Shown piece after piece: positions 4,547 to 4,845 of a stretch of DNA of 21,433 bases. Both the position numbers and the translations under genes were made by a program. How positions within the stretch are numbered: the first letter of the stretch is position 1; each line of letters starts with the position of its first letter. Under the pieces are notes generated by a model that saw only the letters and a program-made list of their open reading frames with translations, was not told where the DNA came from and did no database searches. This DNA is from a virus: the UHGV virus genome UHGV-0131019. The stretch is one strand, 5' to 3'.

Positions 4547-4701
4547 TAAAATTACCCTTTATTATCCTTTTGAATCAATGGGTTGTGATTTGTTAATGAT
4601 CCTAGGTTCGTTGCATATGCATAATCTATCAAAAAAAACTTACGCGGTCCGCATATTCTCGTTTACTGTGTTAAGAGTGGTTACTTCGCCACACAACTTA
4701 A

Positions 4702-4724
4702 ACCCGCCGCTGAGCGGTTTTTTT
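4702..4724 (+). terminator. Rho-independent terminator-like element (short GC stem plus T7 run), candidate tR'
   Basis: cccGCCGCtgaGCGGttttttt: short GC stem followed by seven T. Rightward orientation, ~120 nt upstream of the next + strand gene. Confidence 0.4.
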
Positions 4725-4845
4725 GTACCTGTAAACCTTGTGCAGTACAGTAAACACGCTGGTGGTCGTGAATACTGGCTTTTTATCTTGCTGGCTTTTT
4801 AGACAAGAGTTATTGGTATGTCATGTTAACCAGAAGGGAAAAGAC

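Follow-up and report, generated by a model that had tools for sequence, protein, structure and literature searches.

A probable late control cassette separated from its Q gene by a cargo island in a lambdoid prophage

The DNA analyzed here, called the window throughout, is the whole stretch of 21,433 nucleotides (nt) of UHGV virus genome UHGV-0131019, a lambdoid prophage of the E. coli type. Our subject is a spacer of about 300 bp (4547-4845), in which a late control region for the antiterminator Q is proposed. The gene order starts with a DUF968/NinG-like gene (1728-2723) followed by the Q antiterminator gene on the plus strand (2738-3103, with an ATG at 2741; the NCBI PGAP annotation of a relative uses the TTG at 2738). 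Then comes an inserted cargo island (3104-4630, its edges set against the cargo-free relative 1720a-02) with two genes on the minus strand. Island gene 1 (3614-4546) encodes a DUF6731 protein of 310 amino acids (aa) matching Pfam PF20505 (E=3.5e-11) and PHROG 7651, and island gene 2 (3147-3599) a predicted membrane protein of 150 aa, assigned to PHROG 8552, whose function is unknown. The spacer extends from island gene 1 to an open reading frame (ORF) of 67 aa on the plus strand (4846-5049), which is the first gene past a terminator at 4703-4724 and is followed by a DNA methyltransferase gene (5200-6252, plus strand) and the lysis genes.

We consider it probable that positions 4631-4724 of this spacer form a Q-utilisation cassette, made of a late promoter, a Q-binding element and the first terminator. 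The block lies downstream of Q, which ends at 3103, and upstream of the holin gene, which begins at 6257, on the same strand as both. In phage 1720a-02 the same type of Q is found directly before the homologue of 4631-4724, with the Q stop codon falling within the A-tract that opens the block, and the homology of this phage to the window stops at the end of Q and restarts at 4631. Since Q there runs straight into the block, 3104-4630 is an insertion relative to the 1720a-02 layout. Among 80 viral contigs retrieved with the Q protein, the gap between the Q stop and the conserved core of the block is 28-39 nt in 17, and the remaining Q-derived loci have gaps in many size classes, from 0.6 to 2.9 kb; in cargo-free relatives from other genera the gap is 4-57 nt. 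The initial annotation of this DNA had read the interval as a late control region belonging to Q, equipped with a terminator and parted from Q by inserted DNA, and 1720a-02 together with the 17 contigs without insert bears this out. It was also right that a convergent gene follows Q at once, as the stop of the minus-strand ORF 3147-3599 lies 44 nt after Q. The cassette seems to be an essentially ordinary late control element of the QuuD-like Q21 branch, displaced from its Q by a 1.5-kb island.

The Q protein itself (121 aa) gave a full-length match to PF06530 in a Pfam search (E=3.2e-52), falls in PHROG 79 and matches the Q21 structures 6P18/6JNX at E=4e-4. Its segment GISKRKLAK aligns with the DNA-contacting helix of Q21, the residues S-K-R standing opposite Q21 S93-K94-H95. 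Judged by these matches, it belongs to the Q21 superfamily as a small, QuuD-like protein and is a distant relative of Q21 itself.

The distribution of the block was surveyed in two samples, namely the 80 contigs mentioned above and 120 stretches of viral contigs retrieved with an exact match to the core; enough upstream sequence was available at 177 loci, corresponding to 138 distinct Q-to-core sequences. A small PF06530 Q was present upstream of the core, on the same strand, in all 177 loci, and a lambda-type or Q21-type Q in none of them (0/177). In each of the 24 loci without a Q, the sequence upstream is shorter than 1.9 kb. A sensitive search with 4547-4705 showed that 3267 of 5426 complete E. 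coli genomes contain the 37-nt core (4669-4705), and the core matches include the K-12 prophage DLP12, where it lies between nmpC and essD, and phage PA-2, where it lies upstream of the lc porin gene. In a megablast comparison against phage records the homology to the window is mosaic. SfV and Ayreon, which carry a lambda-type Q of 250 aa, have no match to the left of 4701 and share with it only the terminator and what follows, while phages with a small PF06530 Q match further left (PhiR40_1 from 4669, mEp460_4F5 from 4619 and cdtI throughout). In a genome-wide scan with a pattern of 15 specified bases, most matches were chance occurrences in unrelated phyla, and a Q was found upstream only in the matches from Enterobacterales.

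The block is tied to Q by a palindrome, GCGG-T-CCGC (GCGGTCCGC, 4644-4652), which we propose as the Q-binding element. The class of the palindrome agreed with the class of the Q helix-turn-helix in 177 of 177 loci, over five classes and with zero mismatched pairs. Class a, which is the window's own (GCGGTCCGC), comprises 103 loci, the QuuD class (TTTACGTACGTAAA) 46, the mEp460 class (GCGTACGC) 19, the PhiR40 class (TTTACAATCGTAAA) four and a fifth class (TGTTATAACA) five. Representative genomes from other genera supplied five more pairs, in each of which the palindrome goes with a helix-turn-helix variant of its own: GCGCTACGC in Serratia and Rahnella, GCGTTACGC in Citrobacter, TGGAATTCCA in Superficieibacter, TGTAATTACA in Kosakonia and TTTACGATCGTAAA in Trabulsiella. 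All ten variants of the element are short inverted repeats of 8-14 bp. Because the class-a palindrome is constant over 15 cargo clusters and also in the cargo-free state, it tracks Q and not the cargo. Between Q classes the N-terminal half of the protein is 64% identical and the C-terminal half 28-44%, so that an invariant core beside a variable palindrome mirrors a conserved N-terminal beside a divergent C-terminal half of Q. This parallel suggests that the C-terminal domain reads the palindrome, with the conserved N-terminal domain working with RNA polymerase on the conserved core.

Column statistics of the block were computed on 44 distinct class-a sequences. On its left edge stands an A-tract, A8 (4631-4638, plus strand), which covers about -45 to -38 in the numbering of the predicted promoter and has A at columns 4631-4635 in 36-41 of the 44 sequences. 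This tract, a possible UP element, is lacking in the QuuD class and therefore not universal. The T at 4640 is invariant, the palindrome is embedded in the near-invariant CGCGGTCCGCA (4643-4653), and four positions between CGCGGTCCGCA and the predicted -10 are only A or T. The latter, TACTGT (4664-4669, plus strand), follows the pattern TAnnnT, or T-A-n-T-n-T column by column; all 44 sequences have the A and the final T, 38 have the first T, and the middle varies freely. When a -10 weight matrix was applied at every offset to 75 distinct sequences of the family, only position 4664 was consistently positive (mean 3.95 bits, 91% of the sequences above 3 bits), and the second-best offset, the invariant AAGAGT at 4673-4678, reached 2.13 bits. 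With the usual 7-nt spacing from TACTGT, the start is predicted at A4676 (+/-1), which would give a leader of about 49 nt up to the end of the T-run at 4724.

To the right of the -10 comes the core shared by all classes, GTTAAGAGTGGTTACTTCGCCACAC (4670-4694, plus strand), which contains the predicted start, AAGAGT and then GG and TTCG, and is proposed as a region of sigma-dependent pausing. Its first 12 bases, GTTAAGAGTGGT (4670-4681), are invariant or nearly so in class a and across genera; some of the later positions vary, and the core GTTAAGAGTGGTTACTTCG corresponds to 4670-4688. Conservation continues to about 4702 and is followed by a hairpin and a T-run, an intrinsic terminator analogous to tR' (4703-4724, plus strand; stem 4706-4710/4714-4718, T-run 4718-4724). 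The GC hairpin with seven T reported in the initial annotation is real. Of 82 distinct sequences of the family, 64 have a hairpin of -6 kcal/mol or lower followed by a T-run at this distance, compared to 17 of 410 shuffles. Since 29 different hairpin sequences occupy this position at a fixed distance, selection appears to act on having a terminator there and not on its sequence; in SfV and Ayreon it is annotated as a terminator.

Over the region 2600-5400, terminator-like sites were somewhat enriched (7 against 2.2 +/- 1.5 in shuffles) and promoter-like hexamer pairs showed no excess (9 against 7.3 +/- 2.7). A possible hairpin of 5 bp at the 5' end of the leader (GUGGU...GCCAC, 4677-4692, plus strand) is predicted in most variants; as a conserved structure it was rejected, the covariation being not significant, with one compensatory pair that 97 of 500 shuffles equalled. 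The fold of 4676-4850 was no better than that of shuffles (z -0.7), and no Rfam 15 family reached its gathering score anywhere in the window; a permissive scan limited to 4500-4900 returned only chance-level hits (E at least 0.35). A complementarity between 4661-4669 and 4747-4755 is lost in 1720a-02 and was treated as chance. On the minus strand, positions 4655-4641 read as the palindrome TATGCGGACCGCGTA followed by AGTTTTTTTT, which derives from the A8 tract, and look like an intrinsic terminator. In class-a phages this site could keep antisense transcripts running leftward out of the island and Q; the feature is absent in the QuuD class.

Among the closest known systems for comparison of the parts is the cassette of phage 21, whose record OL657228 annotates a -35 TTGACA, a Q-binding element (QBE), a -10, a start, a pause element TAAGCTG (+2 to +8) and a terminator. 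The QBE is placed between -35 and -10 in lambda as well as in phage 21, and a -10-like pause element is found in the initial transcribed region (PMC6606751). Phage 21 resembles the window, as read here, in having a Q of the same superfamily (PF06530) and a cassette upstream of the lysis genes. The elements also come in the same order, with the QBE immediately before the -10, a -10-like hexamer where the transcript begins and a terminator ending about 50 nt beyond the start. Phage 21 differs in its QBE, a direct repeat ATTGAGCA AATGAGCA abutting the -10, whereas the window has a 9-bp palindrome; the two TGAGCA direct-repeat subsites, 8 bp apart, of a Q21-type QBE are not found in the window element. 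Moreover, the -35 of phage 21 is the consensus TTGACA and that of the window is weak, Q21 has 162 aa with a long loop in the DNA-binding motif compared to the 121 aa of the window Q, and the phage 21 cassette stands 7 nt after the Q stop and not 1.5 kb away. The pause hexamer is shifted from the -10 by 13 nt in phage 21, 12 nt in lambda and 9 nt in the window.

The logic proposed here is also that of lambda pR'-qut-tR' (6S RNA), where transcription from a constitutive promoter undergoes an early sigma-dependent pause and Q overrides the terminator. Lambda and the window are alike in their initial transcribed sequences, AACGATGGGTTAATTCGC and AAGAGTGG-TTACTTCGC respectively; both contain a -10-like hexamer with the key A and T, then a G-run and, about ten bases further on, TTC|G. 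In lambda the polymerase pauses at C/G (+16/+17), and the sequence G(-10)...Y(-1)G(+1) favours pausing. Applying this rule to TTC|G, the pause in the window is predicted at about +12. On the other hand, lambda Q belongs to an unrelated family (PF03589), the lambda cassette follows Q directly, the lambda leader is about 194 nt compared to about 49 nt, and the lambda promoter is strong (TTGACT-17-TAAATT).

The following mechanism can be proposed. A sigma-70 promoter, with TACTGT as -10, the A-tract upstream and a weak -35 that the palindrome overlaps with its left arm, would start transcription near A4676. Without Q, as the anatomy suggests, termination at the hairpin with its T-run (4706-4724) would leave an RNA of about 49 nt. 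Q would bind GCGGTCCGC at 4644-4652, as indicated by the strict co-variation with the helix-turn-helix class, and would probably do so as a dimer. It would engage a polymerase detained early in the invariant core; lambda and phage 21 suggest, by analogy, that the most likely place is a sigma-dependent pause AAGAGT-GG...TTC|G near +12. The modified polymerase would then pass 4724 into the small ORF, the methylase gene, the lysis genes and the particle genes. Normally the cassette adjoins or overlaps the 3' end of Q; here the island with its two leftward genes intervenes.

Several observations weigh against this mechanism. We infer the start site, the pause and the Q-dependence of the cassette from its sequence. 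The -35 is weak, being TTAnCG at 19-nt spacing or a worse match at 17-18 nt, and when sequences are scored singly the TACTGT promoter falls outside the eight best sites in 4520-4720 and is not listed by a consensus scan. AAGAGT would sit at -3 to +3, compared to +1 to +6 for the lambda element and +2 to +8 for that of phage 21, which means either an unusual geometry or a misplaced start site. The terminator stem has just 5 bp, and the fold of the leader is modestly better than that of shuffles (z -1.8). The palindromes are unlike the direct repeats bound by Q21, and no cargo cluster is common to two Q classes, so that the co-variation could partly be linkage. Finally, the primers of PMC7918800, mapped on DLP12, imply a published, experimentally derived start at position 3653 of our DLP12 locus (L010:3653), 350 nt upstream of the block. 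The sequence there (L010 3615-3653, in the nmpC-essD spacer) reads GAACTA-N16-TCACT followed by an A at 3653 and is sigma-E-like, and this start looks like a separate, cargo-borne sigma-E promoter rather than the Q site.

Of the other explanations, the one that survives best, although we consider it unlikely, keeps the site and the palindrome as proposed and makes Q mainly a promoter activator that replaces the contact of sigma region 4 at the -35. The -35 is poor and overlapped by the palindrome, the fold of Q21 is similar to sigma region 4 (10.1101/651190), and the Q of mEp460 has a weak ECF-sigma match in Pfam. However, a terminator kept at a fixed distance despite its 29 sequences would be purposeless if Q only activated initiation, the invariant initial transcribed region with its -10-like hexamer resembles the lambda pause region, and Q shares its family with Q21. 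In favour of an activator, the DLP12 homologue was reportedly termed a 'Q-like transcription factor' by Rueggeberg and colleagues in 2013.

A different late promoter had been indicated in the initial annotation, an extended -10-like TGCATAAT at 4617-4624. The motif is present, but at 4618-4625, and its TG abuts the hexamer without the one-base gap of the canonical extended -10. Transcription from it would start at about 4632 and, after a leader of about 90-100 nt carrying the palindrome as RNA, end at 4724. Its CATAAT agrees with five of the six bases of the -10 consensus and outscores TACTGT in the single sequence, with a total of 5.6 bits when paired with ATGATC at 18-nt spacing, and a 93-nt leader folds at -22 kcal/mol (z -1.4). 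Nevertheless TGCATAAT occurs at chance frequency, with one copy in the window against 0.9 expected and at least one copy in 58 of 100 shuffles, and scores of the size of 5.6 bits arise about five times per kb and strand. It lies in island-specific DNA, which only the loci with this island (L011, L012) have in common and no other cargo type contains, and 1720a-02 has codons of Q at the positions aligned to it. Conservation in the Q family starts only at 4631, and the palindromes would give RNA stems of just 2-4 bp. We therefore regard TGCATAAT as a very improbable promoter; the conserved -10-like element is TACTGT at 4664-4669, about 45 bases to the right of the position first proposed, and the predicted leader is shortened from about 100 to about 49 nt. 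Slightly less credible still is that the block is no promoter but a boundary terminator or insulator between cargo and late module, the palindrome serving the leftward cargo genes either as a CRP site, as annotated over the block upstream of the lc porin gene in the PA-2 record J02580, or with the minus-strand T8 as a leftward terminator, as listed by the terminator scan (4655-4641, then AGTTTTTTTT): the -35 of the proposed promoter is indeed weak, but the block is unchanged in loci without any cargo, the palindrome is tied to the Q class (15 cargos, one palindrome), and the QuuD and PhiR40 classes lack the minus-strand T-run, which is separated from the stem by a gap of 5 nt.

Two further comparisons bear on the proposed cassette. 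The DLP12 locus quuD-nmpC-essD and the PA-2 lc locus share with the window the Q subfamily, a core block that is 95% identical, a leftward cargo between Q and block (there a porin) and the lysis genes after it; they differ in the C-terminal half of Q (34% identical), in the palindrome (TTTACGTACGTAAA) and in the cargo. SfV has the same terminator and the same module of small ORF and methylase, with homology from 4701, but it carries none of 4631-4700. It has instead its lambda-type Q and a lambda-like promoter and pause, TTGCAT-17-TAAGAT-6-AACGATGGG, and its terminator lies about 60 nt downstream of this promoter and pause sequence. As SfV uses the same hairpin, the latter appears to serve as the first late terminator with two unrelated Q families.

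The short leader brings to mind StxS, a regulatory small RNA produced by termination at tR' of Stx phages, which is processed from a 258-nt transcript and binds Hfq (PMC7547250). The predicted 49-nt RNA would be like StxS in being short, constitutive, and made from the late promoter up to the first terminator; Hfq binding is known for StxS only. A literature search for a small RNA near essD found nothing. One can imagine a joint reading, tentative and in our opinion rather doubtful, in which the small QuuD-type Qs would be a subclass that binds palindromes as symmetric dimers and captures the polymerase unusually early (at an RNA of about 12 nt), and in which the near-invariant leader of about 49 nt would be a constitutive prophage small RNA with its own, StxS-like function. 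If so, the gap between Q and its site would be a protected niche, where defence-like cargo is swapped without disturbing late control.

Concerning the cassette as such, our results provide a sequence-level rule for the late promoter and terminator in a very common group of enterobacterial prophages, the core being present in about 60% of complete E. coli genomes. As the control site is often away from Q in these prophages, it is easily overlooked. The known principle of Q antitermination is left unchanged, and the by-products, which are the co-varying palindromes, the invariant core and the cargo hotspot, are modestly interesting. Among them, the matched Q/palindrome pairs, at least ten, are a ready set for studying how proteins of the Q21 superfamily read DNA, and the gap between Q and site is a useful place for lysogenic-conversion and candidate defence genes.

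Judged from the inserts, the gap between Q and site is a recurrent cargo hotspot of this phage group. At least 28 insert clusters mutually without DNA similarity were found in it, and the longest ORF of the insert is leftward in 19 of 20 cluster representatives. Identified among the cargo proteins were an OmpC-like porin, a KAP-family NTPase, an NYN-domain protein and two NA37 proteins, the last accompanied by membrane partners, besides two versions of the pair formed by DUF6731 and a small membrane protein; many of these inserts look like candidate defence or lysogenic-conversion modules. The arrangement of Q, island and spacer is identical in E. coli NJS001, where a DUF6731 family protein is annotated. 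Neither island protein of the window had a match in PADLOC, island gene 2 had none in Pfam, and a literature search on DUF6731 returned nothing. In some of the cargo-free relatives (L281, L285 and L299, from Superficieibacter, Kosakonia and one further genome) the Q frame continues through the palindrome and the -10, and the Q stop lies only 4-22 nt before the core, so that the promoter is partly encoded in the tail of the Q gene.

The island has its own signals at both ends. Between the converging Q and island genes, the terminator scan found a hairpin with a perfect 11-bp stem (3118-3143), followed by ATATTATATG, whose folding energy is -17.0 kcal/mol (z -3.6) for the plus strand and -15.5 kcal/mol (z -5.0) for the minus strand, neither of which has a clean U-tract. 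The leftward island transcript, the Q transcript or both probably end at this hairpin, which may be a bidirectional stop; as it comes earlier, the hairpin at 4702-4724 cannot be called, as in the initial annotation, the first rightward terminator-like element. At the other end, the spacer 4547-4630 (minus strand) is island-specific, being common only to loci with the same island and unrelated in other cargo types. The leftward island promoter must be located there, because no other non-coding DNA is available. A scan of 4547-4630 for leftward promoters gave TTGATT-18-TAATTT, ATCACA-17-GATAAT and TAGATT-18-TAGGAT, all at chance-level scores, and the best-scoring candidate was rejected since its start would fall inside the ORF or too near to it.

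Downstream of the terminator, two 11-bp direct repeats CTGGCTTTTTA had been noted as part of the control region. They are present exactly at 4775-4785 and 4791-4801, but they belong to the leader of the small-ORF/methylase module, and relatives have them in imperfect form or not at all: in cdtI, Ayreon, SfV and PhiR40_1 the first copy differs by 1-2 mismatches, and in 1720a-02 it can no longer be recognised. With the repeat degraded in this way, we see no evidence that the duplication matters. The repeats lie inside a segment of 120 nt (4752-4871) which is nearly identical even in SfV. There, near-identity extends over 4752-4871 and again from 5076, with about 50-75% over the body of the small ORF (4872-5075) and sharp mosaic joints; as identity drops only over this body, the non-coding leader appears to have been kept while the ORF allele was exchanged. 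The ribosome-binding site and the start codon of the 67-aa ORF are flanked by perfectly complementary arms of 10 nt, TATCTTGCTG (4784-4793) and CAGCAAGATA (4855-4864), which could form a start-masking structure.

Further to the right come the genes of the holin (6257-6535), an ORF of 206 aa (6540-7160), the lysozyme (7214-7747) and then Rz. The order of small ORF, methylase and holin/lysis genes is also annotated in cdtI, PhiR40_1, Ayreon, SfV and mEp460. In the window the 206-aa ORF, of unknown function, separates the holin gene from that of the lysozyme, two genes that usually adjoin.

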